A DNA stretch of 64,000 nucleotides from NCBI GenBank assembly GCA_050288425.1, contig JBNKDU010000124.1, forward strand, positions 48,711 through 112,710, given 5' to 3'. The stretch's first letter is position 1. Each line of letters opens with the position of its first letter. The notes under the pieces were generated by a model, which searched no databases, was not told where the DNA came from, and saw only the letters and a program-made list of their open reading frames with translations. This document shows, piece after piece, positions 9,112 through 30,030 of this stretch. The position numbers and the translations under genes are program-made. The stretch comes from Desulfobacteraceae bacterium. Its GTDB lineage: Bacteria; Desulfobacterota; Desulfobacteria; Desulfobacterales; Desulfosarcinaceae.

Positions 9112-9176
9112 TCCGGGCGGATTCCTTTACGAATCGAAATTGAAGCATATTTCAAATATCATCTTAGGAGGAAAAT

Positions 9177-11229: not shown

Positions 11230-11467
11230 ATTAATGAAAGCCGGCAACCATACGATCCGTCTCAGGCGATATCCACGGTTTCCTTCCATCGGCCACCCGG
11301 CCGACGAAGGGAGGAATCCGACGCCTTCGCCTGGAGAATGAAGCTGGCAACTGCTCCTCGGGTTGAGCAGCACCGAGCTTCAGGTTTCAGGAATACAGGA
11401 TATCGCCTGATGCCGTATGAGGCGGCAGAACAACAAATCTTCAAACTTCGATGCACGGAGGGATAGC

Positions 11468-12745
11468 ATGACGAATAAAAATACCGCCCTTACGAGCGGA
11501 AGCATCATGGTGGTCGGCGGAGGCATCAGCGGGTTGACCACCGCGCTGGAAGCGGCCGAAGTGGGGTATGAGGTGTACCTGGTGGAGAAGAATCCGTACC
11601 TGGGTGGACGTGTCGCGCAGTTGAATCAGTACTTTCCCAAGCTATGTCCACCGACCTGCGGGTTGGAGATCAATTTTCGCCGCATCAAGGACAATCCCCG
11701 CGTGAAAGTCCTCACCCTGGCGGAAGTGGAAAAAGTCGAGGGCGGTCCAGGCAACTACGATGTCACGGTCAAGGTCAAGCCGCGCTTTGTCAACGAAAAG
11801 TGCACCGCCTGCGGCGCCTGCGCCGATGCCTGCGACGCGGAAGTCAGCGATCCGTTCAATTTCGGCTTGAGCAAAAAGAAAGGCGCCCATATTCCGTTTG
11901 AGATGGCGTTTCCCGCCCGTTACATCCTCTCCCCGGAAATCGTGGGAACCGATGCCGCCCGGAAAGCCAAGGATGCCTGTAAGTACGATGCCATCGACCT
12001 GGACATGACGCCTGAGACCCTGGATCTGAATGTCGGCGCCATCGTCTGGGCCACCGGCTGGGAGCCCTATGATGCCGCCCAGATCGACAACCTGGGGTTC
12101 GGTCAGCACGACAACATCATCACCAACATGATGATGGAGCGGCTGGCCGCTCCCAACGGGCCGACCAACGGCCAGATATTGCGTCCTTCGGATGACAAGG
12201 CGCCCGAGAGCGTGGCCTTCGTCCAGTGCGCCGGGTCCCGCGACGAGAACCATCTGCCGTATTGCTCCTATATCTGCTGCATGGCTTCGTTGAAGCAGGC
12301 CACTTATGTGCGCGAGCGCTATCCGGATGCGAAGATTTACATCTTCTATATCGATCTGCGGGCGCCGGGCCAACGCTACGAGAAATTCTACCAGACCATC
12401 AAGGAAGACGAGAATGTCTTTTTCATCAAAGGCAAAGTCGCCGAAGTGATGGAGGATTCAGCCACCAACGCCGTCACCGTCGTGGCGGAAAACGCCGTCA
12501 CCGGTGAAAAAACAAAACAAACCGTGGACCTGGTCGTCCTTGCCACCGGTATGCAGCCCACCGCCGCCAACGCCAAACTGCCGGCCGATTTGAACTATAA
12601 CGCCGACGGTTTCATCATCAATGACTTCGAGAAGGGCGGCATGTTTGCAGCAGGTTGCGCCAATAAACCTGCCGACGTGGTTTCATCCAATCAGAACGCT
12701 ACCGGTATGGCCTTGAAGGCCATTCAAACCCTGGCAAGGAAGTAG
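11468..12745 (+). CDS. qmoA: Quinone-interacting membrane-bound oxidoreductase subunit A (HdrA-like flavoprotein)
   Basis: ATG at 11468 (MTNKNTALTSGSIMVVGGGISGLTTALEAAEVGYEVYLVEK). HdrA-like FAD fold. Sits between aprA and qmoB, the canonical position. Confidence 0.93.
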   Translation: MTNKNTALTSGSIMVVGGGISGLTTALEAAEVGYEVYLVEKNPYLGGRVAQLNQYFPKLCPPTCGLEINFRRIKDNPRVKVLTLAEVEKVEGGPGNYDVTVKVKPRFVNEKCTACGACADACDAEVSDPFNFGLSKKKGAHIPFEMAFPARYILSPEIVGTDAARKAKDACKYDAIDLDMTPETLDLNVGAIVWATGWEPYDAAQIDNLGFGQHDNIITNMMMERLAAPNGPTNGQILRPSDDKAPESVAFVQCAGSRDENHLPYCSYICCMASLKQATYVRERYPDAKIYIFYIDLRAPGQRYEKFYQTIKEDENVFFIKGKVAEVMEDSATNAVTVVAENAVTGEKTKQTVDLVVLATGMQPTAANAKLPADLNYNADGFIINDFEKGGMFAAGCANKPADVVSSNQNATGMALKAIQTLARK

Positions 12746-12755
12746 GAGGCGATCC

Positions 12756-15092
12756 ATGGACAAGAAATATGGTGTCTATATATGCGAAGGTTGTGGCATC
12801 GGCGAGGCCCTGGATATCGAAGCCCTCAAGGGTGTTGCCGACGAAGAGGGGTTGAACGCCAAGACCCATCCGATTTTATGCAGCCCGGAAGGCGTCGATT
12901 TTCTCAAACAGGATATCGAAGGCGGCGTCAACACCCTGGTGTTGTGCGCCTGCTCCCGGCGGGTGAATTTCGATACGTTTCGATTCGAAGGCTGTATCGT
13001 CGAACGCGTCAACCTGCGGGAAGGTGTCGTCTGGTCGCATCCGCGGTCTGAGTTTCCCGCCCTCACCGAAGAAGAGAAGGAAGACGAAGACAAGTATGAC
13101 CGCGTGCAGATGATGGCCGAAGACTATCTCAAGATGGGGATGGCCCGGGTGGCGAAAGTCAGTCTGCCCGAGCCCTACCAGTTGGAGAAATCCTCCGATA
13201 AGATCCTGGTCATCGGCGGGGGCCTCACCGGCATGTCCGCGGCCCTGGATGCCGCCAATGCCGGTTATGCCGTCACCCTGATCGAGAAAGAGGCCCGGTT
13301 GGGTGGCGCGGCGCTGAACTGGCGCAGCCAGCTGCCGGTGAGCGAACCGTATGATTCGTTGGTGCCGCCGGTGGTGGAGGCGAAGATCAAGGCCGTGGAA
13401 GCCCAGCCCGGCATCACCGTCAGGACGGAAACCGTCCTGGCCCGGCTGGCCGGTCAACCCGGCGAATTCACGGCGACCTTCAAGAAGCCGGGCGAAAAGA
13501 TCGAGTTCGACGTGCCGTACCCCCTGCCCGAAGAGATGAAGGTGGATGAGAGCGGCAAGGAACTGAACGCCGAGCAACAGTTCGAGGCCTATCAGAAATA
13601 CAACGAAGGCCGCAGGGACATCCTCAAGCTGGATCCCGACGGTGAACTTTTCGGCGCCGTCGTCCTGGCCGCAGGCTGGGTGCCGGCCTCGGTGGAAAGT
13701 GAAGCCTACGCCCACCTGGGCTATGCCGACAATGCAGACGTCATTACCAACACGGAATTCGAAGCCATCGCCAAGGCCGGCAAGATCGTGCGCCCGTCCG
13801 ATGGCAAGGCGGCCAAATCGGTGGTCTTCGTGCAGAGCCCGGGCAAGGATGAAGACGATGCCGACTTCTCCTATGCCGGTGCCGTGACCAACATGGTGGC
13901 GCTGAAACAGGCCAGGTACGTGCGCGAAGATTACGAGGACGGCAAGGCCTTCATCTTCTACCAGCACATGCGCACCCCGGGCCTGAGCGAGTACTTTTAT
14001 AAGGGCATGCAGCAGGACCCCGGCGTCTTCATGACCAAGGGCAACGTGATCCAGGTCGTCAAGAACGGCGACGGCATGGTCGTCGAGGCCACCGACACCC
14101 TGCTGGGCAAGCAGCTCAAGGTCAAGGCCGACCTGGTGGTCCTTTCCGCCGGGATGGAGCCGGCCACCAAAAAGGATCCCGTGGTCAACATGGCCTACCG
14201 CCAGGGGCCGTCCTTCCGGGATATCGGCCTGTTCGACGGCTATTGCGACTCCAACTTCATCTGCTTCCCGTACGAAACCCAGCGCACCGGCATCTATGCC
14301 GCCGGCGCCGTTCGCCGGGCCATGACTTCCGAGGAGGCCATGGAGGACGCCGCCGGCGCGACCCTGAAGGCCATTCAGAGCATCGAGTCCGCCAATCGGG
14401 GCGTGGCGGTTCACCCGCGTTCCGGCGACATGACCTTCCCGGACTTCTTCTTCCAACGCTGCACCCAGTGCAAGCGCTGCACCGAAGAGTGTCCCTTCGG
14501 CGCCCTGGATGACGACGAAAAAGGGACGCCCAAGCCCAACCCCACCCGCTGCCGCCGCTGCGGGACCTGCATGGGAGCCTGCCCCGAGCGGATCATCGGC
14601 TTTGCCGATTACAGCATCGACAGCATCGGCTCCCAGGTGAAATCCATCGGCGTGCCCAGCGAGGACGATTTTGGAGATCCGCCCATGCGCGTCCTGGGCC
14701 TGATCTGCGAGAACGATGCCTATCCGGCCCTGGACATGGTGGCCCTGAAGAAGCTGTCCTATTCCGCCGACGTACGCTTCATCCCCGTGCGCTGCCTCGG
14801 TTCGGTGAACGTGATCTGGATCAAGGACGCCCTTTCCCAGGGGATGGACGGCGTCTTTCTGCTGGGTTGCAAACATGGCGATGACTACCAGTGCCATTTC
14901 GTCAAGGGCAGTGAGCTGGCCGATATCCGGATGAAGAAAATCGGCGACGCCCTCGCCAGTCTGGCACTGGAAGAGGAGCGTGTGGCGCAGTTCCAGGTGG
15001 CCATCGACGAGTACGACAAGGTGCCCAAGATCATCAACGATTTCGTTGAAATGATCGAAGAACTGGGTCCGAACCCCTTCAAGGGATTCTAA
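12756..15092 (+). CDS. qmoB: Quinone-interacting membrane-bound oxidoreductase subunit B (HdrA-like plus MvhD-like C-terminus)
   Basis: 778 aa with FAD fold ILVIGGGLTGMSAALDAANAGY, ferredoxin motifs CTQCKRCTEECP and CRRCGTCMGACP, and an MvhD-like C-terminal part (GCKHGDDYQCHF). Confidence 0.93.
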   Translation: MDKKYGVYICEGCGIGEALDIEALKGVADEEGLNAKTHPILCSPEGVDFLKQDIEGGVNTLVLCACSRRVNFDTFRFEGCIVERVNLREGVVWSHPRSEFPALTEEEKEDEDKYDRVQMMAEDYLKMGMARVAKVSLPEPYQLEKSSDKILVIGGGLTGMSAALDAANAGYAVTLIEKEARLGGAALNWRSQLPVSEPYDSLVPPVVEAKIKAVEAQPGITVRTETVLARLAGQPGEFTATFKKPGEKIEFDVPYPLPEEMKVDESGKELNAEQQFEAYQKYNEGRRDILKLDPDGELFGAVVLAAGWVPASVESEAYAHLGYADNADVITNTEFEAIAKAGKIVRPSDGKAAKSVVFVQSPGKDEDDADFSYAGAVTNMVALKQARYVREDYEDGKAFIFYQHMRTPGLSEYFYKGMQQDPGVFMTKGNVIQVVKNGDGMVVEATDTLLGKQLKVKADLVVLSAGMEPATKKDPVVNMAYRQGPSFRDIGLFDGYCDSNFICFPYETQRTGIYAAGAVRRAMTSEEAMEDAAGATLKAIQSIESANRGVAVHPRSGDMTFPDFFFQRCTQCKRCTEECPFGALDDDEKGTPKPNPTRCRRCGTCMGACPERIIGFADYSIDSIGSQVKSIGVPSEDDFGDPPMRVLGLICENDAYPALDMVALKKLSYSADVRFIPVRCLGSVNVIWIKDALSQGMDGVFLLGCKHGDDYQCHFVKGSELADIRMKKIGDALASLALEEERVAQFQVAIDEYDKVPKIINDFVEMIEELGPNPFKGF

Positions 15093-15156
15093 TGCTGACC
15101 CCCTATACGTGGATCCGGCGGCGGCTCGCCGCCGCCGGTGAACAGGAGGAAAATAA

Positions 15157-16305
15157 ATGTCCGATGCATATCTAGTCGAACCGGATGTGGGCTTTATCAA
15201 GGACGTGGTCAATCTTGGCGGCGGTGATGTCAAAAAGTGCTTTCAATGCGCCACATGTTCGGTGGCCTGTCCCATTTCGCCGGATACCAAACCGTTTCCA
15301 CGCAAGGAGATGATCGCCACTTCCTGGGGACTGAAGGACCGTTTGATCGGCAACGGCGACATCTGGCTGTGCCACAACTGCGGCGACTGCTCCACCCGTT
15401 GCCCCCGCGGGGCCAAGCCCGCCGATGTTCTCGCCGCCGTGCGCGCCTATGCCGTCGGCGCCTACGCCGTGCCCAAGGCCCTGGCCAAAGCCGTGAACAA
15501 CCCCGGCATGCTGCCGATCCTGATGGCCATTCCGGTCATCCTCTTCCTGGTGCTGGGGGTGATCTCCAACATCGTGGGCCTCGACTGGCTGAGCTTCGCG
15601 CCGGCCGGCGATGAACTGTGGCAGCACGACTACATCAACAACCTGCTGGTGGATACCATCATGGTCCCGACCTTCTTTGCGGCCGTTGTGGTCTTCGCCC
15701 TGGGGTTGAAGCGTTTCATCGCCGACATGCATGCCAATGCCCGGCTGGAAGGCAAGACCGACAAGCAGACCATCGACCCGGTGGGCTACGTCCAGGCGCT
15801 GATCAAGGTCATCCCCACCATCTTCAAGCACAGCAAATTCAGCGAGTGCACCGAGAACACGGAACGGGCCACTTCGCACATGATGGTGCTCTTCGGCTTC
15901 ATCGGCCTGTTCATCGTCACCAACTGCTTCTTCATCGCCGAGTGGATCCTGCACATCGAAGGACCTTACTCGCAGATCAATCCGGTGAAGTGGGTGGGGA
16001 ACCTGGCCGGCATCGCCCTGATCATCGGCGGCGGCCTGATGATCGCCAAACGCATGAGCAAGGCCGATCAGGTCAGCAGCTACAAGGACTGGTACCTGCT
16101 GGGCCTGGTCATGACCCTGGGGGTCACCGGGCTGCTCACCGAATTGCTGCGCCTGGGGCACCTGTACGGCGCCATGGCCTTGTTCTACTGGCTGCACCTC
16201 ATCGCCATCTGGTCGCTGTTCGCCTATACCCCGTTCTCCAAGCTGGCCCATCTGGTCTACCGCACCGTGGCCATGGCCTACCAGGAGTACTCCGGAAGGG
16301 CCTAA
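15157..16305 (+). CDS. qmoC: Quinone-interacting membrane-bound oxidoreductase subunit C (HdrC-like FeS fused to a membrane cytochrome b)
   Basis: 382 aa. N-terminal CFQCATCSVACP and CHNCGDCSTRCP, followed by several TM helices. Confidence 0.93.
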   Translation: MSDAYLVEPDVGFIKDVVNLGGGDVKKCFQCATCSVACPISPDTKPFPRKEMIATSWGLKDRLIGNGDIWLCHNCGDCSTRCPRGAKPADVLAAVRAYAVGAYAVPKALAKAVNNPGMLPILMAIPVILFLVLGVISNIVGLDWLSFAPAGDELWQHDYINNLLVDTIMVPTFFAAVVVFALGLKRFIADMHANARLEGKTDKQTIDPVGYVQALIKVIPTIFKHSKFSECTENTERATSHMMVLFGFIGLFIVTNCFFIAEWILHIEGPYSQINPVKWVGNLAGIALIIGGGLMIAKRMSKADQVSSYKDWYLLGLVMTLGVTGLLTELLRLGHLYGAMALFYWLHLIAIWSLFAYTPFSKLAHLVYRTVAMAYQEYSGRA

Positions 16306-16340: not shown

Positions 16341-16380
16341 AAAAAGGAGCCGCTCCTCGATGGAAGCGGCTCCTTTTATT
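16341..16380. terminator. Bidirectional rho-independent terminator between convergent qmoC and the last cytochrome gene
   Basis: AAAAA-GGAGCCGCT-(loop)-AGCGGCTCC-TTTT. The A-run on one side and the T-run on the other let it serve both strands. Confidence 0.7.
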
Positions 16381-16474: not shown

Positions 16475-18175
16475 TTAGGGATATGTTTCGTTATTATGTC
16501 CCTCTCCGTGACAGAGCAGGGTGCAGTTGCCGGTGAAGCGGCCCTGGTCCACGAATGCGAGGGTGCCGCCGTTGGGCGCGACGATGGTGATGTCGAAATT
16601 GATCAGGTGGGTGTTGTTGACGGCGTTTCCCTGGGTGTTGCTGATGCCGTGGGGATCGTGGCAGGCCGAGCAGGGGGCGTTTTGTCCCACGATATGGAAG
16701 TTGTGCAGGCTGAAGCTGTCGTTGCCGAGAATGCTGGCGCGGCTGTGGCAGTTGTAGCACAGCGCATAGGCCGCCGCGCTTTCGGCCGTGTTATCGGCGG
16801 TCACGTAGTTGAGCTCCAGCAGGGGGGCGAAGTCGGATCCGTGGGGCCCCCGGGGACCGGCCGGATCGCTGTTGTTGTGGCAGTCTGTGCAGAAGATCAG
16901 GCTGGCGGTGGTCAAGGGAGGGATCAGGCTGGGCACGTCCGGGTTGACGCCCGGTGCGGCCACCGGATGGTAGGAAGGGTTGCCCGGATTGAATTCCAGA
17001 CGGGTGTTGAGCTGGAGGATCTGCCGGGTGATGTTCAGGACGGCGATGACATTGTTGTCCGCATGGCACTTGAAACAGATCTGGTAGAGGTCGGGCGCCG
17101 GGTCCACCTGGAGACCGGCCAGGTCGATGCCGGTCACCCCGGTGTTGCGCCCCGACACCAGGGGCGCGCCCGGCGACGGAACACCGTTGGCCTGGTGGGG
17201 GTTGTGGCAGTCGACGCACTCCACATGGTTGGAAATGGTGCCGACGGCGAAATTTTCGGCGGCATCGTGCACATCCACGGTGGCCTGAACCGGATGGCGG
17301 GAGGGGCGTGTCAGCAAGACCTCGATGTTGGTCTGGGCCACGTTTCCGTTGTGGCAGGCCAGGCAGGTATCCTCTTCGAAGCGCTGGTTGAGGATGCGCT
17401 GGGGTCTGGGCGCCGTATGGGGACGGTGGCAGGAGATACAGGCGTTCTCCGCCACGGTGGCCAGTTCGGAATTGGGCCATGGATCGACGCCCTGACCGTT
17501 CCACTGGGCGTCGGAGACGGCATGGGAGGCGGCGTTCCAGCCGATCAACTGATGGCAGGTGTTGCACAACCGGCCGAAGGTGTTGGTCATCACCAGGAAC
17601 TTGCCCAGGTCGTTGTTGTGCGGATTGTGGCAGGCGGTGCATTGCAATTGGCTGGTGTCGTCCACCTTGACCTGGGGGGGCAGCAGGGCCGGATCCACGA
17701 GTTCCCCTCGGGTTTGGGCCAATTGACTGTCGTAAATCAGGGAGATCGGGTGGTCGTCGGACAGATCGGTCCCCATCAAGGCCGGGCTGGTGCCGGGCAG
17801 CAGCCGTACACCGCCGGCGAAGGCGATCTCCTGTTCGCGGTCGAGTACGGCGCCCAGGGCGATGGTCCCGTCATGACAGCCGAGGCAAAGACGCGACGCT
17901 CCCGTGGGTTGGCCTACGGCCGCAACCAGGGTGGTGCTCTGGTAAGGGATGTAGTTGGTGGTCTGGTCTTCGCGGTTCCACAGGAAAGGTACATCGTCGC
18001 GGGCGTTGTGGGGGGTGTGGCAGAAGATGCAGATGCGCGATTCGTCCACCGCCCGAAAGGCTCCGGTGCCGCTGGTGGAAAGGTTGTGCGGGGTGGAGGC
18101 GATGTCGGCACCGGCCGTACCGGCGGTCAGCAGCGTGACCAGCATGATGATCCATGGGTTGCCGAGTTTCTTCAT
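16475..18175 (-). CDS. Secreted multiheme c-type cytochrome (11 CxxCH plus 1 Cx3CH)
   Basis: 566 aa with Sec signal MKKLGNPWIIMLVTLLTAGTAGA. Motifs: CIFCH, CLGCH, CTACH, CNTCH, CISCH, CLACH, CVDCH, CFKCH, CTDCH, CYNCH, CSACH, plus C-terminal CTLLCH. Many are CxxCHxPH pairs. The ATG overlaps the upstream NHL gene's stop (ATGA). Confidence 0.9.
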   Translation of the reverse strand: MKKLGNPWIIMLVTLLTAGTAGADIASTPHNLSTSGTGAFRAVDESRICIFCHTPHNARDDVPFLWNREDQTTNYIPYQSTTLVAAVGQPTGASRLCLGCHDGTIALGAVLDREQEIAFAGGVRLLPGTSPALMGTDLSDDHPISLIYDSQLAQTRGELVDPALLPPQVKVDDTSQLQCTACHNPHNNDLGKFLVMTNTFGRLCNTCHQLIGWNAASHAVSDAQWNGQGVDPWPNSELATVAENACISCHRPHTAPRPQRILNQRFEEDTCLACHNGNVAQTNIEVLLTRPSRHPVQATVDVHDAAENFAVGTISNHVECVDCHNPHQANGVPSPGAPLVSGRNTGVTGIDLAGLQVDPAPDLYQICFKCHADNNVIAVLNITRQILQLNTRLEFNPGNPSYHPVAAPGVNPDVPSLIPPLTTASLIFCTDCHNNSDPAGPRGPHGSDFAPLLELNYVTADNTAESAAAYALCYNCHSRASILGNDSFSLHNFHIVGQNAPCSACHDPHGISNTQGNAVNNTHLINFDITIVAPNGGTLAFVDQGRFTGNCTLLCHGEGHNNETYP

Positions 18176-19248
18176 GGCTGTAGATCCTGTGGGTTGAGCA
18201 GTTCAAATATTTGAATGCGTTTGTTGTAGGTATCCGCAACGAAGATGCGGTCATGGTCGTCGATGTGCAGTCCGGCCGGCAGCCAGAATTCGCCCGGCGC
18301 CTGGCCCGATCGTCCCAGGGCCATGAGCAGCCGGAAGCGTGCATCGAAAATCTGTATATTGTCGAAGTTGGCGTCGGCCACGTAAATACGGCCGGCGCTG
18401 TCGGCGGCCACCCCCCGGGGGCGTGAGAACCTGCCGCGGCCGTCCCCGATGCTCCCGAACCCGCCCAGCGGCCGGCCTTCCGCGGTAAAGGTCTGGACTC
18501 GGAAATTCATGGCGTCGGTGACATAAACAGTACCGTCGGCGCCGGCATACAGATGGGTGGGGAAATGCAGTTCTCCCCGTCCCGTTCCGGATCGGCCAAA
18601 GGTGCCGCGCAGCTTTCCGTCTTTCAGTCCGAAGCGCAGGATCTCGTTGCGGCGCGTGTCCACCACCAGCAGTTCCCCGCTGACGGGATTGACGGCCAGG
18701 CCCGTGGGCCGGGTCAATTGCGTCTTTCCCAGCTCGCCCACGGCGCGCCGGCCTGCCAGGTCATAGATCTTCACCACGGCTTGCTGGGAATCGGACACGT
18801 AGATCTTGCCGGTATGCGGCTCCACGGCCACGGCCACCGGCGAAAGCAATGGTTCTTCTTCCGTGGGAATCAGGCGATAGCGGCCGGCCGGCATGTCGAA
18901 CAGATGGATCTTGCGAAGATAACTGTCCACCACATAGATTCTGCCGTCCGGATCGGTGGTGACATCGTAGGGGGACACCAGCACGTCCTGCTGGCGGCCG
19001 GCCATATAGCGAAGGAAGCGGTGCATGAAGGAAGCTTGAATGCCAAGGTCTCCGGGACCGGTGATGCTCGCCAGGTAGCGGATGCGCGCCGGTGCCGACG
19101 GCGGCGGCCAGACTCGCTGCGGCTCCGGAGCCGGCGGCAGCATGCCGGGGTGCTGACAGGCGGTCACCAGTACGAGGATCGAGAGCGCCGTCGCCAGGCG
19201 CACCTGTGGGCCAATGGCTGATGATAGGCGTGTCCGCGAAATTGGCAT
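18172..19248 (-). CDS. NHL-repeat six-bladed beta-propeller lipoprotein
   Basis: 358 aa with a lipobox-like LVLVTAC. Six repeats of the type (R/K)IYV(A/V/S)D...N.RIQ.F, e.g. RIYVVDSYLRKIHLFD, TVYVTDAMNFRVQTFT, RIYVADANFDNIQIFD, RIFVADTYNKRIQIFE. Confidence 0.85.
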   Translation of the reverse strand: MPISRTRLSSAIGPQVRLATALSILVLVTACQHPGMLPPAPEPQRVWPPPSAPARIRYLASITGPGDLGIQASFMHRFLRYMAGRQQDVLVSPYDVTTDPDGRIYVVDSYLRKIHLFDMPAGRYRLIPTEEEPLLSPVAVAVEPHTGKIYVSDSQQAVVKIYDLAGRRAVGELGKTQLTRPTGLAVNPVSGELLVVDTRRNEILRFGLKDGKLRGTFGRSGTGRGELHFPTHLYAGADGTVYVTDAMNFRVQTFTAEGRPLGGFGSIGDGRGRFSRPRGVAADSAGRIYVADANFDNIQIFDARFRLLMALGRSGQAPGEFWLPAGLHIDDHDRIFVADTYNKRIQIFELLNPQDLQP

Positions 19249-19270
19249 GATAATAAGGGTCGATCTCCTT

Positions 19271-21325
19271 TTAAAACGGGATGCGGATCAATTCGACTTG
19301 CACGGTCTGGCGTGTCCGCCGGTCATCATTGGCCTCGTCATGCTCGTCAAGGTAGCTGTAGGTGATGCCGCCGGTCCAGATGCGGTACTTGAATTCGAGC
19401 TTGGCAAGGATGCCGGTATCCACCACTTCGCGTAAATCACCGCTGACGCTTTCCCAGAAACCTTCCAGGCTGAATTTGCTCCATGAGCGCAGCAGGTACT
19501 CGCCCCGCACCCGCAGACTGATCACCTGTTCGGACTGGTCCAGCTCCTTGAAATAGATGTCGGTGTAGCCGCCGGTGATGGAACCGAAGAGACGTCCGCC
19601 GGTATGTTGGCGCAAGGTCTGTTCGGCGCTCCATTGGGTAGTGGAAATCCCGCTGTCGCGCTCGCTGTCCTCCAGGGTCAGCCGGGTCTCGTACATCGGT
19701 TTGGTATAGCGCACCAGGGCCGTGTGGACCTGTTCGCCCGCCGGGCTGCTTGGATCGGGTCCGCTGGTGATGGATTGATCGGCGCGACGGTAGCGGTAGG
19801 AGAGGGTCAGGGCATCCCAGAGGAAAAACTCGAATCCGTAGCGTTGGCGTAGAATGGCATCGTCGAAGCTGGCGTCGGAGGTGAACTGATAGTCCACCAG
19901 TACGGTTTGCCCTTCGGCGATATTCCCCAGCACGGTACGGCTGATCCGGGTCTGATTGCCGATCTGCTCCAGGATGTAATCCGCGCCATTGACATAGACG
20001 ATGGTGGCGTTGCCGTTCGTAACCCGCACCGTGGCAGGATCCACATTGGGATTGTTCAGGAAGGTGACCGCGGATGTGCTCAGGGTCTGGGGTTCTGCGA
20101 TTACCTGGATCTGCAGTGCGTCCAGATTGCGGGTGGTGACGTCGTAGTTGGCGCCTGCGAACAGGTTCATGCGTCCCCACTCGATGGGTTGCCGAAAGGT
20201 GAAATCGAGCCGGCCGCGATAGATTTGCTCGTCGCCTCCGGTGAATTCATTGCCGGTGTAGCCGGCGCCGCCGGCGGTGGTCAGCCTGTCATTATACAAA
20301 TGAGTGACGCGGGCTTCCGCGTCCTGGGATTGAAATTCGGAAACGCCGGTTTCCGCGCGGCTGAAGCCCAGGTTGTAGTCGCTGCGCAGGTTGGTGCGGT
20401 GCTGCCAGTGCAGGTTTTCACGCAGCCGCAGGCTGTTGGTCTCCAAGGTTCCGAAATCGGAGCTCCGGTAATTCCAGAAGGAGTTGAGTTTCACCCGCTG
20501 GTCACGGGCCAGCATCCATTCGTTGTGCAGGTCGGAATTCAAGGTGTCGACGGTATTGGTAAATCCCTGGAGGGTGCGTTCGTTTTCGCTGTAGGTGGCG
20601 CTCAGGCGGGTCTTGCTGCGGATGGCGTTGTGGTGCGTCACCAGGTTGTATTGGTCCTGGGTCTCCTGGGAGTCGAAAAATCCGGATTGGTCCACGTCCC
20701 GGTGAACGTAACCCAGGGTGGTGGGCAGCAGGCGGTTCTTGAGGTAGATGTCGGCGCCGTATGTGTCGATCTCGGATTCGGCGCTCTGGGCAAAGGCGCT
20801 GCGAAGGGTGGTCTCCCGGCGCTGGCCGAAGAGGCGCAGGGAAACCGGTTTGGGGTCCAACAGGCGCGCCTCGGCAAAATAGGACGCCAGGGTATCGCTG
20901 GAATCGTCATTTTCTCCGGAGTCGCGGTCCTGGGTGGATTGCCGGAGCTCCGGCTCCACCCGCAATTTCAATTTCATCAGGGCCGGATGGTAGATCCATC
21001 CGTTGGTTTCCAGGACGAGCCGTTCGCGCCACTCCTGGGTGGTGTCCCGGCTGTCGCCCCGGCCTCCGCGACGTTCCTCCTCTTCGAAATGATAGGCGAG
21101 ACCCAGTCCCACCTTGGGACGTTGGAAGTAGATCCGGCCGGTTTCGCCGTCACTCTCCTTGGCCGCGGGCACGGCCCGCAGGGAAAGGGTCGCTGGAACT
21201 TCCAGCGGAATGACGGTATTTCCATCCGATTCTGGTTGCTCGGCGGCCATCGTCCGATCGTGAACGGCGAGGCTGAGGAGTAACGCGGCTGCGGCGATCC
21301 ATGTACGATATTGGCAAGCTTTCAT
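19271..21325 (-). CDS. Putative outer-membrane beta-barrel (porin-like) protein
   Basis: 684 aa. Signal peptide MKACQYRTWIAAAALLLSLAVHDRTMAAEQ. No haem or Cys motifs. Composition is rich in Y/R/T/N/D/G with alternating hydrophobic residues. The C-terminal ...VQVELIRIPF ends in Phe, like a BAM beta-signal. Size is comparable to MtrB-type barrels. No family recognised by eye. Confidence 0.6.
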   Translation of the reverse strand: MKACQYRTWIAAAALLLSLAVHDRTMAAEQPESDGNTVIPLEVPATLSLRAVPAAKESDGETGRIYFQRPKVGLGLAYHFEEEERRGGRGDSRDTTQEWRERLVLETNGWIYHPALMKLKLRVEPELRQSTQDRDSGENDDSSDTLASYFAEARLLDPKPVSLRLFGQRRETTLRSAFAQSAESEIDTYGADIYLKNRLLPTTLGYVHRDVDQSGFFDSQETQDQYNLVTHHNAIRSKTRLSATYSENERTLQGFTNTVDTLNSDLHNEWMLARDQRVKLNSFWNYRSSDFGTLETNSLRLRENLHWQHRTNLRSDYNLGFSRAETGVSEFQSQDAEARVTHLYNDRLTTAGGAGYTGNEFTGGDEQIYRGRLDFTFRQPIEWGRMNLFAGANYDVTTRNLDALQIQVIAEPQTLSTSAVTFLNNPNVDPATVRVTNGNATIVYVNGADYILEQIGNQTRISRTVLGNIAEGQTVLVDYQFTSDASFDDAILRQRYGFEFFLWDALTLSYRYRRADQSITSGPDPSSPAGEQVHTALVRYTKPMYETRLTLEDSERDSGISTTQWSAEQTLRQHTGGRLFGSITGGYTDIYFKELDQSEQVISLRVRGEYLLRSWSKFSLEGFWESVSGDLREVVDTGILAKLEFKYRIWTGGITYSYLDEHDEANDDRRTRQTVQVELIRIPF

Positions 21326-21388
21326 GCGGAACCCGATTCTTCCGTTTTTGAGGGCAAATGGCTGTAGTCGCTATCCCGATTCATGAGG

Positions 21389-22495
21389 TTACGGCCGGTT
21401 TTCCGGTGAACCGACATATTCGCCAAACCCGTATACATTGATGCGATTGGGGCCGAAGCCGGAGGCCACGTAGACCACATATTCCAGCCGAAATCCCGGA
21501 TCGACGAAGTTGGCGAAATATTGGGCGTTGGCATAATCGATATGTACGCCTGCAGGCAGGTAGAGATTGCCCGCCCCGGTGCCGCCGCCGCCGAAATAGA
21601 GCAGCATGCCGCCGGAGTCGGCATCGAAGATCTGAACATTTTCAAATGCTGCGTCGGCCACGTACAAATGGCCGCTGTGGTCCACGGCCAATCCTTTGGG
21701 ACGGGCGAACGCGCCCAGGTTGTCCCCCGGAAAACCATAGGCCTTGACAAACCGGCCTTCCCCATCGAATTGCTGCACACGGAAATTGAAGGAGTCGGTG
21801 ACGAAGAGATGGCCACGGGGATCGACGGTTAGATGGGACGGCATGCGAAAGGCCCCCGGATCGGCACCGGTGCGGCCGATGCGCTGGAGCACCCTGCCGC
21901 TTGCGCGATCGAGCACCACCACCTGGTTGCGTTTGAGATCGCAGACATAGACGCGGTTTTCATATACCGCCACGTCCACCGGCCTTTCGAAGACCTCTGC
22001 ATTGCCGTATGTCCGCAAATAGCGGTTACGGTCATCGAAGACCACCACCTGTTTGCGCCCCATGTCGGCGATGTACTTGATGTCTTCGGGCGTGACCCAG
22101 ATACCCGACGGGTTCTGAAGGGCGCCCATGCCGGAGTCGGCCAGGGAGTCGATGCGTCGTTTGGCCAGATCGATGATGCGCAGCTTCCGGGGGTTGCGGT
22201 CCAACACGTAGATCTTGCCCGGAACCGAGGCCACATCATAGGGGCGCCCGATGAGTTCGCCGGTCGGCGCCTCTCCCAGCAGAAACCGGTCCCATTTGCT
22301 GCGGCGGCGACCCAAGTCCGCTTCCGCGCTGATGGTGTGCAGGTATTGCAGCCGTGGCCGTTCCGGCGGGGGTGGGTAGAAAACGATGGGTCGCTCCGCC
22401 TGGCGGGACGGGACCGATGCGCAGCCCCCGAGAATGAGCAGGGCCAGTGCGGACGCGGCCCATGCCCGCCACGCAAGCCGGGTGCGAATTTCCAT
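21389..22495 (-). CDS. NHL-repeat six-bladed beta-propeller lipoprotein
   Basis: I prefer the ATG at 22495 (MEIRTRLAWRAWAASALALLILGGCAS, lipobox LGGC), preceded by AGGAGA. The track ORF starts at 22540. NHL blades include KIYVLDRNPRKLRIID, RVYVCDLKRNQVVVLD, HLFVTDSFNFRVQQFD, HLYVADAAFENVQIFD. Confidence 0.85.
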   Translation of the reverse strand: MEIRTRLAWRAWAASALALLILGGCASVPSRQAERPIVFYPPPPERPRLQYLHTISAEADLGRRRSKWDRFLLGEAPTGELIGRPYDVASVPGKIYVLDRNPRKLRIIDLAKRRIDSLADSGMGALQNPSGIWVTPEDIKYIADMGRKQVVVFDDRNRYLRTYGNAEVFERPVDVAVYENRVYVCDLKRNQVVVLDRASGRVLQRIGRTGADPGAFRMPSHLTVDPRGHLFVTDSFNFRVQQFDGEGRFVKAYGFPGDNLGAFARPKGLAVDHSGHLYVADAAFENVQIFDADSGGMLLYFGGGGTGAGNLYLPAGVHIDYANAQYFANFVDPGFRLEYVVYVASGFGPNRINVYGFGEYVGSPENRP

Positions 22496-22553
22496 CTTCT
22501 CCTGATGAGATCGTAGGAATGTGCTTTGCGCCATGACCATCCTGTTCTGTCGT

Positions 22554-23189
22554 CTATAGATTGTGGCAGGTCAAACAAAGGGACGAAGCCGTATTGCTCT
22601 TGCGCAAGAGAGAGACCTGACCGAACTTGTTGTGCACATCGTGACACGACGCACACTCCATGCGACTTCCGAAAAGCATGTCGCTGAGAATGGTTCCCGA
22701 GCTGCCGTCCAGACCCGAAAGCGTGGTGGCCGGATCGCGCAGGCTGCCGTCGGCCAGGGCCAGGTCGGTATTGTAGACGAAAGAGATGGGGTGATCGTTG
22801 CTCAGGTCGGTGCCTAGATTGTTGCGTCCGCTGATCAACTGGCTGCCCGGATTGCCGCCGAATGCATCGATGGCGATGGTGCCGTCATGACACGACAGGC
22901 ACAGTTTGGATGGTCCGATGGGCTGATTCAGCGACCCGGCGGTGGTGCCCGCATCGAGAGTGTCGCTTCCGTAAAGGTTATAGACGGCCGTGGAAACCGC
23001 ATGGTTCCACATGGGGACGTTTTGGACGTCCGTGGATGTGTTGTGGGGCGCATGGCACGGCAGGCAAATTTCTCCCTGGGAGAATCCCAGCCCGCTGAAA
23101 TCGTGGGCGCTGCCCGCGATTTCGGCCATGGCAGTTGCGTAAAGGGCCAATACCAGCATGGTCGTGAAGATGAATAGATTCTTTAACAT
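22554..23189 (-). CDS. Secreted tetrahaem c-type cytochrome
   Basis: ATG at 23189 (MLKNLFIFTTMLVLALYATAMA signal). Motifs CLPCH, CLSCH, CASCH, CLTCH. The sequence is colinear with the N-terminal third of the 566-aa cytochrome (SAHDF..CLPCHAPHN..CLSCHDGTIAID..GTDLSNDHPISFVYN). Confidence 0.85.
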   Translation of the reverse strand: MLKNLFIFTTMLVLALYATAMAEIAGSAHDFSGLGFSQGEICLPCHAPHNTSTDVQNVPMWNHAVSTAVYNLYGSDTLDAGTTAGSLNQPIGPSKLCLSCHDGTIAIDAFGGNPGSQLISGRNNLGTDLSNDHPISFVYNTDLALADGSLRDPATTLSGLDGSSGTILSDMLFGSRMECASCHDVHNKFGQVSLLRKSNTASSLCLTCHNL

Positions 23190-23312: not shown

Positions 23313-26057
23313 TTATCCCTTCCGGCGTCTGGGATCGTGGTAGTAAAGATATCGGTACAGTCCCTCGGGTCCGTGGCACGCTGCGCAGACGGTGTTTGCG
23401 CTGCCGACCCGGAGATACTTGTTGAGGATATCGTCCGATTTCAATTTTACCATCCTTGTCCCGGATGCGACACCCTGGTGGGCGTTGTGGCAGGAAGGGC
23501 AGCCCAAATCGCCCACCCGCCGCCGGCGACCCTCGGCATCGAACAGCGGGAAGCCTTCGCCCGAGTCGGGGGCTCCCGGCCGGCGGATGGTGGACAACAG
23601 CCTGCCGGTGGGGTGTCCCGCGGCTTGCGGGACGCTTCGGGCGGCAATTTTCCCAGCCGCGTGGCAGCTTCGGCACAGCATGTTTACGCCGATCTCGTCG
23701 ACGTCCGGATCGGTCAGGGGTCGCGCCCACAGCTTCAAGGATCGGGGGCTGTTGTGCACGATATGGCAACCGCCGCAAACGCCGGATTCCGTCGGCGTCT
23801 GGCCCAGGACATTGCGCGATTCGGGAGCCGATACCGTCAGGTCGTGGGTGGTGCCGTCCACCCGCGACATCTTGGGATGGCAGTCCCTGCAAAGGGAAGA
23901 GTTGGCATTGTTGGGCCGCCGGAGAAAACTGGTAGTCGTATCGCCCTCGGTATTTACGGCGCCCGGGGATTCCTTGCGGCCAGCCGCACTCCAGACATGG
24001 GCATCGTGGCAGGTGGTGCAGACCATAAGATCTTCTTCCCCCTGCGGATCCGAGTAAAGCGGCAGGGCAGCCAAACCGCCGGCTTTCGGGGACATCCAGC
24101 GATTCTTGTTCTCAACCTTGCGGCCCACCGGATGGGAATTGTCATTGACCAGCTTTTTGTCTGCCAGGCCGCCGGGCCGATGGCAACTGGCGCATCGGCG
24201 GGTAACCGGATCGCCGCCCGGCCCCGGCGCAAGACCCCATAGACGGTCCGCGGTGCCCTGGTGGGGCGCATGGCAGCCGCTGCACGGATCGCTATCGGCC
24301 CGGATACCGAGGCTGTTGGTATGATCCGGGAAGATCTGCCCGATATGATGTTCGGTCATGGACACCCGGCCGTTACGGCGATGACAACCGACACAGAGCG
24401 CGGCCCGGTCCTGGTTGGCCATGCGCAGGAAACTGCTGCCTGCGTCGCCTTCCTGTTTCGGATCCTCGCTTTTCGCCAAGGCGCCCGGCCGCCAGCGGTG
24501 AACATCATGGCAGGTGGCGCACTGCATACTGCCTGAAGTCGATATGTCGCCTTTAGGAGTAAATCCGGGCAGCAATAGGGGCGAACCCGGGGCGAGGGCC
24601 ACGTTCAACGGATGGGAGCGGCCGGTGGTTTTTCCGGGACGCCAGGGCAAATCTCCGTGGCAGCTCAAACACGTTTGGGTGGCGGGGTGGCCCTGGTCCA
24701 GTGGGCGCGCCCACAACTTCCAGCCCATTGCGTTGTGCGGCAGGTGGCAAGCGCTGCAGGGACCGGATGCGGCCGCCGTGGCCGAATGGGTGTTGCGTAT
24801 CTCCGGGGCTGTATGAACCATGTTGTGCGCCGTGTCGATGACCGTGGCCTTGTCTTGGTGGCAGTTGAGGCACAAGGCCGAATTCCTGGCGCTGGGAACA
24901 CGCAGGAAACTGTTGCCGCCGTCTCCCTGACCATTCTCGGGAGGCAGCCTGGATTCATCCTCAGGCGCCCAGCGGTGGACGTTATGGCAGGTGAAACACT
25001 GCACCTTGCCCCGGTGGGCGGACGGCCTTCCATCGGTGAGATAGAGGGGCAGACCGTCGGCCGGCGGCTTGGCCGGCCGACGGTCCACCGAGTGCGATAC
25101 CTTGCCGATTCCGCGGGCCACGCTGTCGGGACCTTCTGAATGACAACTCAGACACATCCCCGAAGCCGGATTGGAATTGCCGATGTCCCGGTTCCACAGC
25201 CGCTTGCCGTTGGCGTCGTGGGGCGAGTGACATCCGCCGCAAGTGCCCCATTTGTAAACCTTGGCGTCCTTCTTGGTTTTGGGATCCAGGCGCAGGTCAT
25301 GACGGGTGCCGACGATGGTGGTCTTTTCTGCGTGGCAGGCCGTGCAAAGCGTGGCGCTGGTGTCGGCCATGATGCTTATTTTATCTCCACGGGCACCGTG
25401 AACGCGGTGGCAGGTCTGGCAAACCAGGGTGCGGCCGTCCGGTCCGATTTTGCTGCCGGCGGTCCGCAGCAATGCCGGCAGCTTGCGCGGCAGGGGTTTC
25501 AACGGGTGTCCGTTGGTGCGCTGAAAGTCGGCCTTGTCCTGATGGCACATGGCGCACAAGGTGACGGTAGGATTGCTGGTCCGCAGGAAGGAAGTAATTT
25601 CCAGCGGAATTTCGGCAGATTCCTCGGGACCGGTGTGGGGGGTATGGCAGGTGCCGCAGTAGAGTTCATCTTTCCGGCTCAGCGGCAGCGACGCAGGTAC
25701 GCTGACCTTTCGGCTGGGTTTGATCATGGAGGGATGAGATTTGCCCTTCCAGGCCACGGCGCGCGAGTCGCGAACGTAGCCATCGTGACAGGTGTAGCAA
25801 CTATCCTCGGAAGAGACCACCCCCTGGGTATTTTTCATCAGGACATTGCCCGGCTGCCAGGGAATCAACGTTTCCTGGGTGCTGCGGAACTCATCCAGCC
25901 ACATCACATGGCAGATCGCACAATCTCTCTTGGAAGATTGTTCCCTGGCGTCTACCGGAGATGCCAGCAGGAAGAGGATGGCCAGCAGGACCGGCCATCC
26001 GGCCGGCGCCGGGATCCTGGCAATTGGATAACGGGATATGGTCCGGTTCGGGTTCAT
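23313..26057 (-). CDS. Giant modular multiheme c-type cytochrome (22 CxxCH)
   Basis: 914 aa; signal ...GWPVLLAILFLLASPVDA. 22 CxxCH motifs counted: a 6-haem N-terminal region followed by four tandem modules of about 150 aa and 4 haems each. Conserved C-terminus CAACHGPEGLYRYLYYHD. Confidence 0.9.
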   Translation of the reverse strand: MNPNRTISRYPIARIPAPAGWPVLLAILFLLASPVDAREQSSKRDCAICHVMWLDEFRSTQETLIPWQPGNVLMKNTQGVVSSEDSCYTCHDGYVRDSRAVAWKGKSHPSMIKPSRKVSVPASLPLSRKDELYCGTCHTPHTGPEESAEIPLEITSFLRTSNPTVTLCAMCHQDKADFQRTNGHPLKPLPRKLPALLRTAGSKIGPDGRTLVCQTCHRVHGARGDKISIMADTSATLCTACHAEKTTIVGTRHDLRLDPKTKKDAKVYKWGTCGGCHSPHDANGKRLWNRDIGNSNPASGMCLSCHSEGPDSVARGIGKVSHSVDRRPAKPPADGLPLYLTDGRPSAHRGKVQCFTCHNVHRWAPEDESRLPPENGQGDGGNSFLRVPSARNSALCLNCHQDKATVIDTAHNMVHTAPEIRNTHSATAAASGPCSACHLPHNAMGWKLWARPLDQGHPATQTCLSCHGDLPWRPGKTTGRSHPLNVALAPGSPLLLPGFTPKGDISTSGSMQCATCHDVHRWRPGALAKSEDPKQEGDAGSSFLRMANQDRAALCVGCHRRNGRVSMTEHHIGQIFPDHTNSLGIRADSDPCSGCHAPHQGTADRLWGLAPGPGGDPVTRRCASCHRPGGLADKKLVNDNSHPVGRKVENKNRWMSPKAGGLAALPLYSDPQGEEDLMVCTTCHDAHVWSAAGRKESPGAVNTEGDTTTSFLRRPNNANSSLCRDCHPKMSRVDGTTHDLTVSAPESRNVLGQTPTESGVCGGCHIVHNSPRSLKLWARPLTDPDVDEIGVNMLCRSCHAAGKIAARSVPQAAGHPTGRLLSTIRRPGAPDSGEGFPLFDAEGRRRRVGDLGCPSCHNAHQGVASGTRMVKLKSDDILNKYLRVGSANTVCAACHGPEGLYRYLYYHDPRRRKG

Positions 26058-26067
26058 CGGAATTCCA

Positions 26068-27018
26068 TCAATGCCGCAATTGGATACGGCGAATGCGGTT
26101 GGCCCGCATCTCCACTACGTGAATGTCCGTTCCGTTTCCGGCGGCGATCAGACCCACCGGCGTTTTCAACCGATAAACACTGCCGCTGTCGCATACAACG
26201 CCCAGCAAGCGGCCCATATCGGAGAATACCTGGATCACCCCCATATAGCTGTCGCTGATATAAACGCGGTCCTGGTTATCCACCGACACGCCTTTGGGCC
26301 GGACCAGTCTTCCCGGCGTGACCCCCCAGCCGCCGATGGTGTTCAGAAAATTGCCGAAGGGATCGAATTTCTGGATCCGGGTATTGAGCACATCCACCAC
26401 CAACAGCTCGTTGAGGCTGTTCTTCGCCAGCATGGCTGGATAGCGGAATTGGCCGTTGGCCTCGCCATATCCCCCCCAGGCAGTCTGAAATCGGCCCTGC
26501 TGATCGAAGACCTTTATTTTATGGTTGTCGTTGTCCACCACATAAATCCGATTCTTCAGCCCCGAAGCCAGCACATCCACCGGGTCGGCCGGTTTTTCAC
26601 CGGCCGCAGTGGGCACATCGAATTGGGATCGATATTTCCCATTCAAATCAAATACTTGAATGCGCCGATTGCCGCTGTCGGCAATGTAAACGCGTCCCTG
26701 GGCGATATCGATGCCCAGGGGCAGTTGAAATTCTCCCGGCCCCTGGCCGGGGGAACCGAAAGCGGACACCATGTTGCCTTCGGCGTCGATCACCGCCACC
26801 CGGTGGTTGACCCCGTCCACGAGATAGTAGTTGCCGTTGGGTGCCACGGCCACATCGCTGGGTTGATCCACATCCAAATTCCACGACGTTTGCGCACTGA
26901 TTTCGATGCACTCCATGGCCGCGGCCGGCCGGTCCGTGGATAGTGCGGCGAGCAGAATCCATCCTGCGATCAACCCCCCGCGAGTCCACAGCCGTAGGAT
27001 TTGCCGCAGGGTCATCAT
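26068..27018 (-). CDS. NHL-repeat six-bladed beta-propeller protein (secreted)
   Basis: The ATG at 27018 overlaps the upstream gene's stop (ATGA). The track ORF start at 27201 is an extension. Signal MMTLRQILRLWTRGGLIAGWILLAALS. Blades include NYYLVDGVNHRVAVID, RVYIADSGNRRIQVFD, RIYVVDNDNHKIKVFD, ELLVVDVLNTRIQKFD, RVYISDSYMGVIQVF. Confidence 0.85.
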   Translation of the reverse strand: MMTLRQILRLWTRGGLIAGWILLAALSTDRPAAAMECIEISAQTSWNLDVDQPSDVAVAPNGNYYLVDGVNHRVAVIDAEGNMVSAFGSPGQGPGEFQLPLGIDIAQGRVYIADSGNRRIQVFDLNGKYRSQFDVPTAAGEKPADPVDVLASGLKNRIYVVDNDNHKIKVFDQQGRFQTAWGGYGEANGQFRYPAMLAKNSLNELLVVDVLNTRIQKFDPFGNFLNTIGGWGVTPGRLVRPKGVSVDNQDRVYISDSYMGVIQVFSDMGRLLGVVCDSGSVYRLKTPVGLIAAGNGTDIHVVEMRANRIRRIQLRH

Positions 27019-27890: not shown

Positions 27891-27896
27891 TCTAGA

Positions 27897-29986: not shown

Positions 29987-30030
29987 GAATTTCGTTCACC
30001 TATCGGTTAATTCATAACCGGTCCGCCCAC

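Follow-up and report, generated by a model that had tools for sequence, protein, structure and literature searches.

A conserved five-gene module of cytochromes, propellers and a barrel

The 64,000-nt stretch of DNA analysed here (positions 48,711 to 112,710 of contig JBNKDU010000124.1 in the Desulfobacteraceae bacterium assembly GCA_050288425.1; hereafter the window) contains a continuous minus-strand island of genes (16475-41405) between sat and the convergent aprBA-qmoABC genes, and the downstream end of this island is a group of five genes that we read as probably encoding the outer-membrane part of a nanowire system built of extracellular, OmcE-type cytochromes. Specifically, the group consists of cyt4 (22554-23189), a 211-residue tetrahaem protein with four CxxCH motifs, a Sec signal (AMA|E) and no lipobox that is the putative nanowire subunit; NHLa (21389-22495; 368 aa, lipobox ILGGC|AS); a 684-residue barrel (19271-21325; C-terminus IRIPF); NHLb (18172-19248; 358 aa, lipobox LVTAC|QH); and cyt12 (16475-18175), a 566-residue cytochrome with 12 haem sites. 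Both NHL proteins are predicted outer-membrane lipoproteins carrying a six-bladed NHL propeller. The open reading frames, their coordinates and strand, the two lipoboxes, the terminal IRIPF of the barrel and the ATGA overlap given in the initial annotation of this DNA were all found to be correct. The ATGA overlap joins NHLb to cyt12, as in translational coupling, and the remaining intergenic gaps measure 22, 63, 58 and 123 nt, the gap of 63 nt (21326-21388) being that between NHLa and the barrel. A strong bidirectional intrinsic terminator with a 15-bp stem followed by a T-run (16342-16377) lies between cyt12 and the convergent qmoC and marks the 3′ end of the module operon.

The proposal that these five genes constitute one module is borne out by comparison with other genomes. 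Loci were drawn from genome and metagenome collections as well as from OmcE-like matches and were collapsed to 22 non-redundant examples (denoted by L numbers below), with the 17 metagenome loci biased toward closer relatives owing to the narrow barrel alignment used in that scan. A tblastn map returned the order cyt4 - NHLa - [pentahaem lipoprotein] - barrel - NHLb - cyt12 wherever the contig allows, and this recurrence places the arrangement far beyond chance. NHLa is upstream of the barrel in all 19 informative loci, and 16 of 17 loci have NHLb as the next gene after the barrel; the exception is a Caldithrix-like locus (L013), in which the NHLb-cyt12 pair is found together 8 kb away on the same contig. 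The barrel therefore always travels with both NHL genes, as expected from the partnership that the initial annotation had proposed for them. The overlap of NHLb with cyt12, 1-11 nt long, is present in every locus, and NHLa overlaps the pentahaem gene in relatives. Labelled loci come from Desulfobacteraceae and Desulfatiglandales metagenome-assembled genomes (MAGs), a Nitrospirota MAG, an Acidobacteria MAG and a contig whose cyt4 is labelled Caldithrix, such that synteny of the module spans at least four phyla.

The tetrahaem cytochrome resembles the OmcE nanowire subunit

In phmmer searches, cyt4 matched two Protein Data Bank (PDB) chains over its full length, namely 9yuq_N (E = 2.8e-24) and 7tfs_A (E = 7.5e-23), and its identity to Geobacter sulfurreducens OmcE is 34%. 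Across an alignment of 86 homologues that includes Geobacter OmcE, the residues of the four haem motifs are invariant (C42/C45/H46, C97/C100/H101, C179/C182/H183 and C205/C208/H209), as are four further histidines (H29, H49, H133 and H186). Eight histidine ligands matching those of cyt4 are listed as conserved across OmcE homologues (Petersen et al. 2025, bioRxiv 10.1101/2025.10.22.684050). An AlphaFold2 (AF2) model of cyt4 reached a mean confidence (pLDDT) of 76, and its sole Foldseek match in the PDB was 7tfs (E = 7.6e-9, TM-scores 0.58/0.60), with a root-mean-square deviation of 5.2 over 189 columns that represents a moderate fit for a haem-free model. Of the two PDB entries, 9YUQ comprises 16 chains of 218 aa each and is presumably the D. 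soudanensis OmcE bundle of the 2025 preprint, and the OmcE nanowire structure 7TFS reportedly stems from Wang et al. 2022. OmcE polymerises through inter-subunit His-haem ligation, with the bridging histidine lying across the subunit interface. Identification of 7TFS as the G. sulfurreducens OmcE filament is given in PMC12954529, and the Foldseek description agrees. Judged from sequence and model, cyt4 is an OmcE-family tetrahaem cytochrome for which filament formation is predicted.

With respect to the start of cyt4, an in-frame ATG at 23303 is preceded by a better Shine-Dalgarno sequence (AAGGAG) and is the start used by the MAG annotation; it would yield a protein of 249 aa with the signal peptide 38 residues inside it. 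Two 86%-identical homologues are annotated with this long start. Nearly all others are 200-215 aa and begin at the signal peptide, which is why we prefer the 211-residue form of the initial annotation. The ATG at 23303 could be a mis-called start or could belong to a short leader.

An OmcE-like head in the dodecahaem cytochrome

The haem sites of cyt12 comprise 11 CxxCH motifs and one C-terminal Cx3CH motif (CTLLCH), and all 12, together with 17 further histidines, are kept in 11 homologues. Its signal is of the Sec type (TAGA|D), and no cysteine precedes the first haem motif. Residues 8-209 match full-length OmcE (7tfs_A) with an E value of 4.3e-28, and this N-terminal domain retains all four CxxCH motifs and all four distal histidines of OmcE. 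Orthologues across four phyla score 387-825 bits against cyt12. Against the DmsE/MtrA model TIGR03508, by comparison, cyt12 scores only 49.9 bits, where the cutoff is 192.2, and this places it outside the MtrA/DmsE family. In terms of domain organization, cyt12 is, as judged from its alignments, one OmcE-like tetrahaem unit (head, residues ~24-210) fused to an 8-haem extension. The combination of an OmcE-like head with an 8-haem tail is a new feature and makes cyt12 a candidate filament base. The initial annotation had framed the locus as Mtr/Pcc-type and overlooked both this N-terminal unit and the OmcE homology of cyt4.

A very large barrel from an unnamed family

The barrel candidate was modelled with AF2 using ten homologues, and the resulting structure (pLDDT 74.5) is all-beta from residue 73 to residue 683, with ~30 strands; the turns are very short at either face of the barrel, and a single ~70-residue domain is inserted. 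A check of the strand number, for which the initial annotation had called, accordingly gave a very large barrel, with the qualification that the DSSP string contains 31 segments, an odd number, and that the true count is uncertain at roughly 28-32. Our own geometric estimate of the Cα diameter is ~55 Å (n = 30, b = 4.4 Å, tilt ~40 degrees). From this model we infer that the barrel would be wide enough for a folded tetrahaem protein or a haem rod, and that the insert would be too small to serve as a plug. A C-terminal Phe or Trp is kept in barrel homologues.

Foldseek matched the model only to generic large barrels (Cir, LptD, FimD and MtrB) at 6-11% identity; MtrB (6r2q_B), at 8%, was one of many such matches. 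Neither the barrel nor its insert alone returned anything from Pfam or NCBIfam up to E = 10, and a barrel profile had no match among PDB sequences. A word-indexed search found only ten close relatives, and a profile search of 1.84 billion representatives returned 2219 clusters at 50% identity with E <= 1e-3, 587 of them at E <= 1e-30. The barrel is a member of a large unnamed family without a Pfam or NCBIfam model. Two assignments were considered and set aside: the MtrB/PioB or OmbB families, for which Pfam and NCBIfam gave no match and MtrB appeared only as a generic 8%-identity hit, and a chaperone-usher pilus, for which Pfam gave no usher (PF00577) or PapD-like match and FimD appeared only as a generic barrel.

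The insert domain (residues ~405-480, nt ~19885-20110) is the best-conserved part of the family. Among 75 diverse members, Y479 never varies, and E411, L423, D449 and Y450 almost never do. In about half of the relatives, the insert aligns with positions 90-170 of a phage tail-tube protein model (NCBIfam NF052337) at 20-32 bits, below the cutoff of 60. Separately, residues 28-72 (nt ~21110-21245), between the signal peptide and the first strand, are predicted to be disordered (pLDDT <50) and contain an invariant P-L-E-V motif (P40-V43). This N-terminal extension reaches ~200 residues in relatives, whose proteins are 792-879 aa long.

Propeller lipoproteins and a missing lipoprotein cytochrome

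Pfam assigns both flanking NHL proteins to a six-bladed-propeller family and both cytochromes to multihaem families. The NHL model itself is matched with E values of 1.3e-19 (NHLa) and 5.7e-30 (NHLb), and NHLa also matches DUF5128, a 6-bladed propeller. Lipoboxes were called by pattern ([LVI][ASTVIG][GAS]C, with no Asp at +2), and the +2 rule derives from Escherichia coli. The +2 residue is Ala in NHLa and Gln in NHLb; neither carries the Asp that would have signalled inner-membrane retention, and both are predicted outer-membrane lipoproteins, as the initial annotation supposed. The lipobox cysteine is kept in 10 of 11 NHLa orthologues, and the NHLb lipobox is kept in most relatives; conservation of this cysteine extends over Desulfobacterota and Nitrospirota orthologues and the NHL protein of the Geobacter omcE cluster.

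Following a tether of ~20 residues, both paralogues and the Geobacter protein share the motif (F/W/Y)-P-P-x-P-x-x-P-R-(I/L)-x-(Y/W/F)-(L/V/I), which in NHLa takes the form YPPxPxxPR(I/L)xYL. The proline-rich segments themselves, ~20 residues past the lipid cysteine, read FYPPPPERPRLQYL in NHLa, VWPPPSAPARIRYL in NHLb and FWPPLPERPRIEWL in the Geobacter omcE-cluster NHL protein; they lie at the N-termini, at 22400-22440 (NHLa) and 19090-19130 (NHLb) of the window and within the gene at 8338-9423 of the G. sulfurreducens locus L015. The Geobacter protein scores 150 bits against NHLb and carries the shared N-terminal motif as WPPxPxxPRIxWL. The segment looks like a conserved docking segment.

In terms of gene arrangement, each of the window's four NHL genes has a defined successor: NHLd precedes the gene for an 18-haem cytochrome, NHLc that for a 22-haem cytochrome, NHLb precedes cyt12, and NHLa precedes the barrel, at the position that a pentahaem cytochrome gene occupies in relatives. 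NHLc and NHLd have ordinary Sec signals, and a lipobox is present only in the two barrel-flanking proteins. NHLc and NHLd end 6-10 nt before their giant cytochrome genes. This pairing of NHL and cytochrome genes across the module, in which NHLa pairs with the pentahaem gene in relatives, is a new point, and the tight coupling fits a role of the propellers as cytochrome partners.

A pentahaem lipoprotein cytochrome is encoded between NHLa and the barrel, with both NHL genes present, in 16 of 20 informative relatives (for example, L002 8447-9283, L008 9132-9971, L010 9159-9884, L013 12472-13038 and L014 4357-4944). The segment right after its lipid cysteine is conserved as C-x3-RHKVLTFFFTGVPP. 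No orthologue was found within the 64-kb window, and three related lineages (L016/18, L017 and L034) likewise have no such gene between NHLa and the barrel; its absence here is a secondary loss. These observations qualify two statements of the initial annotation. That neither cytochrome has a lipobox is accurate for cyt4 and cyt12, such that the module here lacks the lipoprotein cytochrome of Mtr/Pcc systems, but it does not hold as a design principle, since the pentahaem lipoprotein is kept in most relatives. Likewise, the view of the NHL lipoproteins as membrane-tethered partners gains from their conservation with the barrel and the cytochromes, yet they are not stand-ins for a lipoprotein cytochrome, because the two coexist in most relatives. 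The initial annotation also stated that it knew of no demonstration of such a role for NHL propellers. There is indeed no experimental role yet for the propellers of OmcE clusters, but the idea itself has a precedent in Deng et al. (2018), who suggested a stabilising role of NHL propellers in the outer-membrane cytochrome complexes of D. ferrophilus (PMC5815863).

The surrounding island and its sulfate-respiration neighbours

Beyond the OmcE module, the island contains 22-, 18-, 8- and 7-haem cytochromes, a cytochrome b, the four NHL propellers and an NrfD/FeS/multihaem complex. Directly upstream of cyt4 is the gene for the 22-haem cytochrome (23313-26057, minus strand; 22 CxxCH, Pfam Paired_CXXCH), and directly ahead of this is NHLc (26068-27018, minus strand), a soluble propeller with a Sec signal and a Pfam NHL match. 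The NHLc-22-haem pair is also found upstream of the module in L002, L005, L008, L009 and L012. A probable inner-membrane and periplasmic feed follows on the minus strand (27015-34316; Pfam Ni_hydr_CYTB, NHL and multihaem families), consisting of a 3-haem cytochrome, cytochrome b (27897-28946), 8-haem and 7-haem cytochromes and the 18-haem cytochrome (31080-33362), directly ahead of which is NHLd (33369-34316, minus strand), a soluble propeller with a Sec signal and no lipobox.

Next to a 331-aa protein without a Pfam family (34313-35308) is a gene set for a predicted quinone-interacting complex of the Qrc/Nrf/Act type (35305-40038). It encodes a 4-haem protein (39103-40038), a 4Fe-4S protein with a twin-arginine signal (38140-39090), an NrfD-family membrane protein (36804-38123) and an 8-haem cytochrome (35305-36768), and the complex looks like one that feeds or drains the periplasmic cytochrome pool. 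The island is bounded by sat, encoding ATP sulfurylase (40134-41405), on one side, and by aprBA (8680-11156) and qmoABC (11417-16305), both on the plus strand and convergent to it, on the other. At 90% identity, the AprA of the window clusters with proteins whose named sources are Desulfobacterales or Desulfobacteraceae MAGs. Given the position of the island, its likely use is electron exchange coupled to sulfate respiration, whether electrons are taken up from a partner or solid or donated to it.

Comparison with known systems

The minimal omcE cluster has been described as two multihaem cytochromes (MHCs), two beta-propeller lipoproteins, OmcE and a large barrel, the last being a putative secretion pore or anchor, and OmcE homologues encoded close to a porin are reported from five phyla, Thermodesulfobacteriota and Nitrospirota among them (Petersen et al. 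2025, bioRxiv 10.1101/2025.10.22.684050). The reference loci of the Geobacter type are the G. sulfurreducens GSU0615-0619 region (L015), a Desulfuromonadales locus (L035) and the D. soudanensis DSOUD_2954 region. In L015 and L035 the order is purHDE - ppcA - resB - ccsB - two MHCs - NHL lipoprotein - OmcE - barrel-sized protein of ~750 aa - glycosyltransferases; the barrel-sized proteins have no Pfam family, and that of the Geobacter cluster has 752 aa. The window shares with the Geobacter cluster an OmcE-family tetrahaem cytochrome with identical haem ligands, a homologous NHL lipoprotein, a very large unannotated barrel and multihaem cytochromes. Its barrel lies 1.2 kb from cyt4, and NHLa and NHLb supply the two beta-propeller lipoproteins. 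Besides cyt12, the nearest cytochrome is the 22-haem protein encoded directly upstream; neither of the two is clearly orthologous to the 370- and 330-aa cytochromes of Geobacter (best score 18 bits). The Geobacter cluster, for its part, lacks the pentahaem lipoprotein, whereas the window lacks a block of glycosylation genes and its host is a sulfate reducer.

A further arrangement is seen in the cultured Desulfobulbales isolate Desulfosediminicola flagellatus (L012; CP050698.1, 787818-808441), where orthologues of cyt4 and NHLa are followed by cytochrome b, NHLc and 22-haem genes. Genes for a pentahaem lipoprotein, for a cytochrome with 12 CxxCH motifs and for a 675-aa protein precede the two orthologues. 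The 675-aa protein has no Pfam family, shows no detectable relationship to the barrel of the window and is possibly a third barrel type; the isolate is a possible experimental host.

The uet cluster of 'Ca. Tenderia electrophaga' and other Tenderiales is like the module in composition only, with a tetrahaem (UetA), a barrel (UetC), two NHL proteins (UetH and UetI) and a rod-like cytochrome (UetJ). UetC is a 28-strand barrel with a ~5 nm pore, UetJ has 11 CxxCH motifs, and the cluster is expressed on cathodes and implicated in electron uptake (bioRxiv 10.1101/2022.05.06.490989). Like UetJ, cyt12 has 11 CxxCH motifs, to which it adds one Cx3CH. The peptidyl-prolyl isomerase (PPIase), the three trihaem c7 proteins and the cupredoxin of uet are missing from the module. 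The D. ferrophilus IS5 clusters DFE_0448-0451 and DFE_0461-0465, which we liken to the module by description, also combine multihaem cytochromes with NHL propellers in a sulfate reducer and are induced under electron-donor limitation (PMC5815863; PMC9769857), but no porin has been recognised in them.

The osc cluster of G. sulfurreducens is, by description, likewise a dedicated nanowire assembly set with a channel-like outer-membrane component, OscEFG, and a propeller-like one, OscD. Its nanowire is built of OmcS, a hexahaem with no sequence relationship to OmcE, and the set includes a PPIase, OscH, whereas the island genes scanned with Pfam gave no PPIase match. According to Shen et al. 2025, as summarized in PMC13194489, OscEFG is tied to OmcS secretion and OscD to filament morphology. 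A porin-mounted model has been proposed for OmcS (bioRxiv 10.1101/2025.10.22.684050; PMC13194489).

MtrCAB, Pcc (OmaB-OmbB-OmcB) and Ext conduits resemble the module in setting a large barrel beside multihaem cytochromes, a rod-like one of which could thread it, and resemble the module's relatives in having a lipoprotein cytochrome. MtrB has 26 strands. The barrel and cytochromes of the module nonetheless fall outside the sequence families of these conduits, to which propeller lipoproteins and OmcE units are foreign. The OetABI conduit (PMC10553843) and the conduits of PMC12133095 have no NHL or propeller component. An operon of sulfate-reducing partners of anaerobic methanotrophic archaea (Skennerton et al. 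2017, PMC5539420) combines a six-bladed propeller with 16- and 26-haem cytochromes and in this resembles the NHLc-22-haem and NHLd-18-haem pairs; its core set has a PPIase and no identified porin, and it corresponds to the upstream island rather than to the five-gene module.

A model for the outer-membrane end of a cytochrome nanowire

Because both cytochromes carry OmcE units, the locus makes better sense as an omcE-type nanowire cluster than as an ordinary Mtr/Pcc conduit. We assign a probability of roughly 0.6 to the interpretation that, in a Desulfobacterales-like sulfate reducer, these genes specify the part of an OmcE-type extracellular cytochrome ("nanowire") system that lies at the outer membrane. 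Since c-type cytochromes receive their haem in the periplasm, cyt4 must cross the outer membrane folded. Monomers of cyt4, haem-loaded and folded in the periplasm, would pass through, or assemble at, the wide barrel and would polymerise outside the cell by inter-subunit His-haem ligation in the manner of OmcE. The OmcE-like head of cyt12 would dock on the filament end as a subunit, and its rod-like 8-haem tail would lie in or under the barrel, like MtrA in MtrB, linking the filament electrically to the periplasmic cytochromes encoded upstream (the 22-haem and 18-haem proteins and the cytochrome b complex). Each lipid-anchored propeller would hold its cognate cytochrome at the outer membrane as a dock, chaperone or clamp. 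NHLb would be paired with cyt12; NHLa would be paired with the pentahaem lipoprotein where relatives have it, and in this genome perhaps with cyt4. A more specific and rather tentative version makes cyt12 the junction between nanowire and cell, with its head built in as the last subunit of the cyt4 filament on the cell side, its tail threading the ~30-strand barrel and the propeller lipoproteins clamping the assembly to the outer membrane. The barrel itself may serve chiefly for export, as a sheath around cyt12 or as the filament mount.

Several points weigh against the nanowire interpretation. A cyt4 filament in this lineage is a prediction from genes and models; OmcE-like tetrahaems form >6000 clusters at 90% identity, and many of these abundant proteins may be monomeric. 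How wide the lumen is, where the insert domain lies and what occupies the barrel are all matters that we infer. With respect to the propellers, Acidobacteria NHL orthologues are without the lipid cysteine, such that lipid anchoring is not universally required, and the lipoproteins could face either side of the outer membrane. The Geobacter order (MHC-MHC-NHL-OmcE-barrel) also differs from that of the window type (OmcE-NHL-(5-haem)-barrel-NHL-12-haem), and the Geobacter omcE cluster has no OmcE-head fusion cytochrome. Finally, a hidden Markov model built from 129 members of the window barrel family found no match in L015 or L012, and hhalign gave a probability of <=5% for the window barrel against Geobacter-type omcE barrels; common ancestry of the two barrels is neither shown nor excluded by these profile comparisons.

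The initial annotation's own model, a filament-free, Mtr/Pcc-like conduit in which a monomeric cytochrome spans the barrel and the NHL proteins, as tethered scaffolds, plugs or docking platforms, replace the lipoprotein cytochrome, accounts for the large barrel between cytochrome genes, and cyt12 has haems enough to span the membrane. The pentahaem lipoprotein adjoining the barrel in relatives recalls Pcc and Ext, NHL genes are coupled to cytochrome genes, and Deng et al. proposed such a role of the propellers for D. ferrophilus. We nevertheless consider this model doubtful: the barrel matches no Pfam or NCBIfam model, and hence no conduit-barrel family, cyt12 is far below the DmsE/MtrA cutoff of 192, the NHL proteins coexist with a lipoprotein cytochrome in most relatives, and a complete OmcE unit in both cytochromes is left unexplained. 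If the barrel were instead an usher-like pore devoted to exporting folded OmcE-like subunits, with electrons crossing elsewhere or via the filament, the NHL proteins might be periplasmic chaperones that stop premature polymerisation of subunits with an unsatisfied haem ligand. Such a machine fits the unusually wide barrel, given that cytochromes mature in the periplasm and must cross folded; the Petersen preprint discusses both a chaperone-usher analogy and a porin-mounted filament, and the roles ascribed to OscEFG in secretion and to OscD in morphology offer a parallel. The lack of homology to usher or chaperone families makes it unlikely, as does the strict conservation of cyt12, translationally coupled to NHLb and composed of an OmcE-like head plus an 8-haem tail, for which export alone gives no reason.

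Very improbable, in our judgement, is a reading in which the NHL proteins are enzymes that modify cytochromes or the cell surface, or the barrel is a generic transporter linked fortuitously. The NHL/SGL fold does include lactonases, lyases and arylesterases, and weak matches to the SGL, Vgb_lyase, arylesterase and phytase-like families of Pfam were recorded, but all of these are below the curated cutoffs, and each of the four island NHL genes is immediately followed by a cytochrome gene or, for NHLa in this genome, by that of the barrel. Fortuitous linkage is excluded by the synteny of barrel, NHL and cytochrome genes across at least four phyla.

Implications for nanowire biology and sulfate reducers

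The initial annotation placed the system wrongly among Mtr/Pcc types and made it out to be newer than it is: the cluster type was already described in 2025 (the omcE clusters of Petersen et al.), and the idea of propellers as stabilisers dates from 2018. The features that set the window apart from described omcE clusters are a different barrel family, the OmcE-head dodecahaem cytochrome, the gene order, the lost pentahaem gene and the sulfate-reducer host. The barrel family itself, with >2000 sequence clusters and no Pfam or NCBIfam model, is worth defining.

How nanowires are exported, initiated, anchored and connected to the periplasm is an open question in electromicrobiology, for which this cluster type gives a testable junction candidate. 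Geobacter-type omcE operons encode no candidate for an initiator or tip (Petersen et al., bioRxiv 10.1101/2025.10.22.684050). If cyt12 is indeed the junction, its role would account for the start, the anchoring and the electrical wiring of filaments and would reveal a second widespread nanowire-mounting machine, distributed over Desulfobacterota, Nitrospirota, Acidobacteriota and Calditrichota and distinct from that of Geobacter. The placement of OmcE-type machinery amid sat, aprBA and qmoABC bears on direct interspecies electron transfer, iron corrosion and electron uptake by sulfate reducers.

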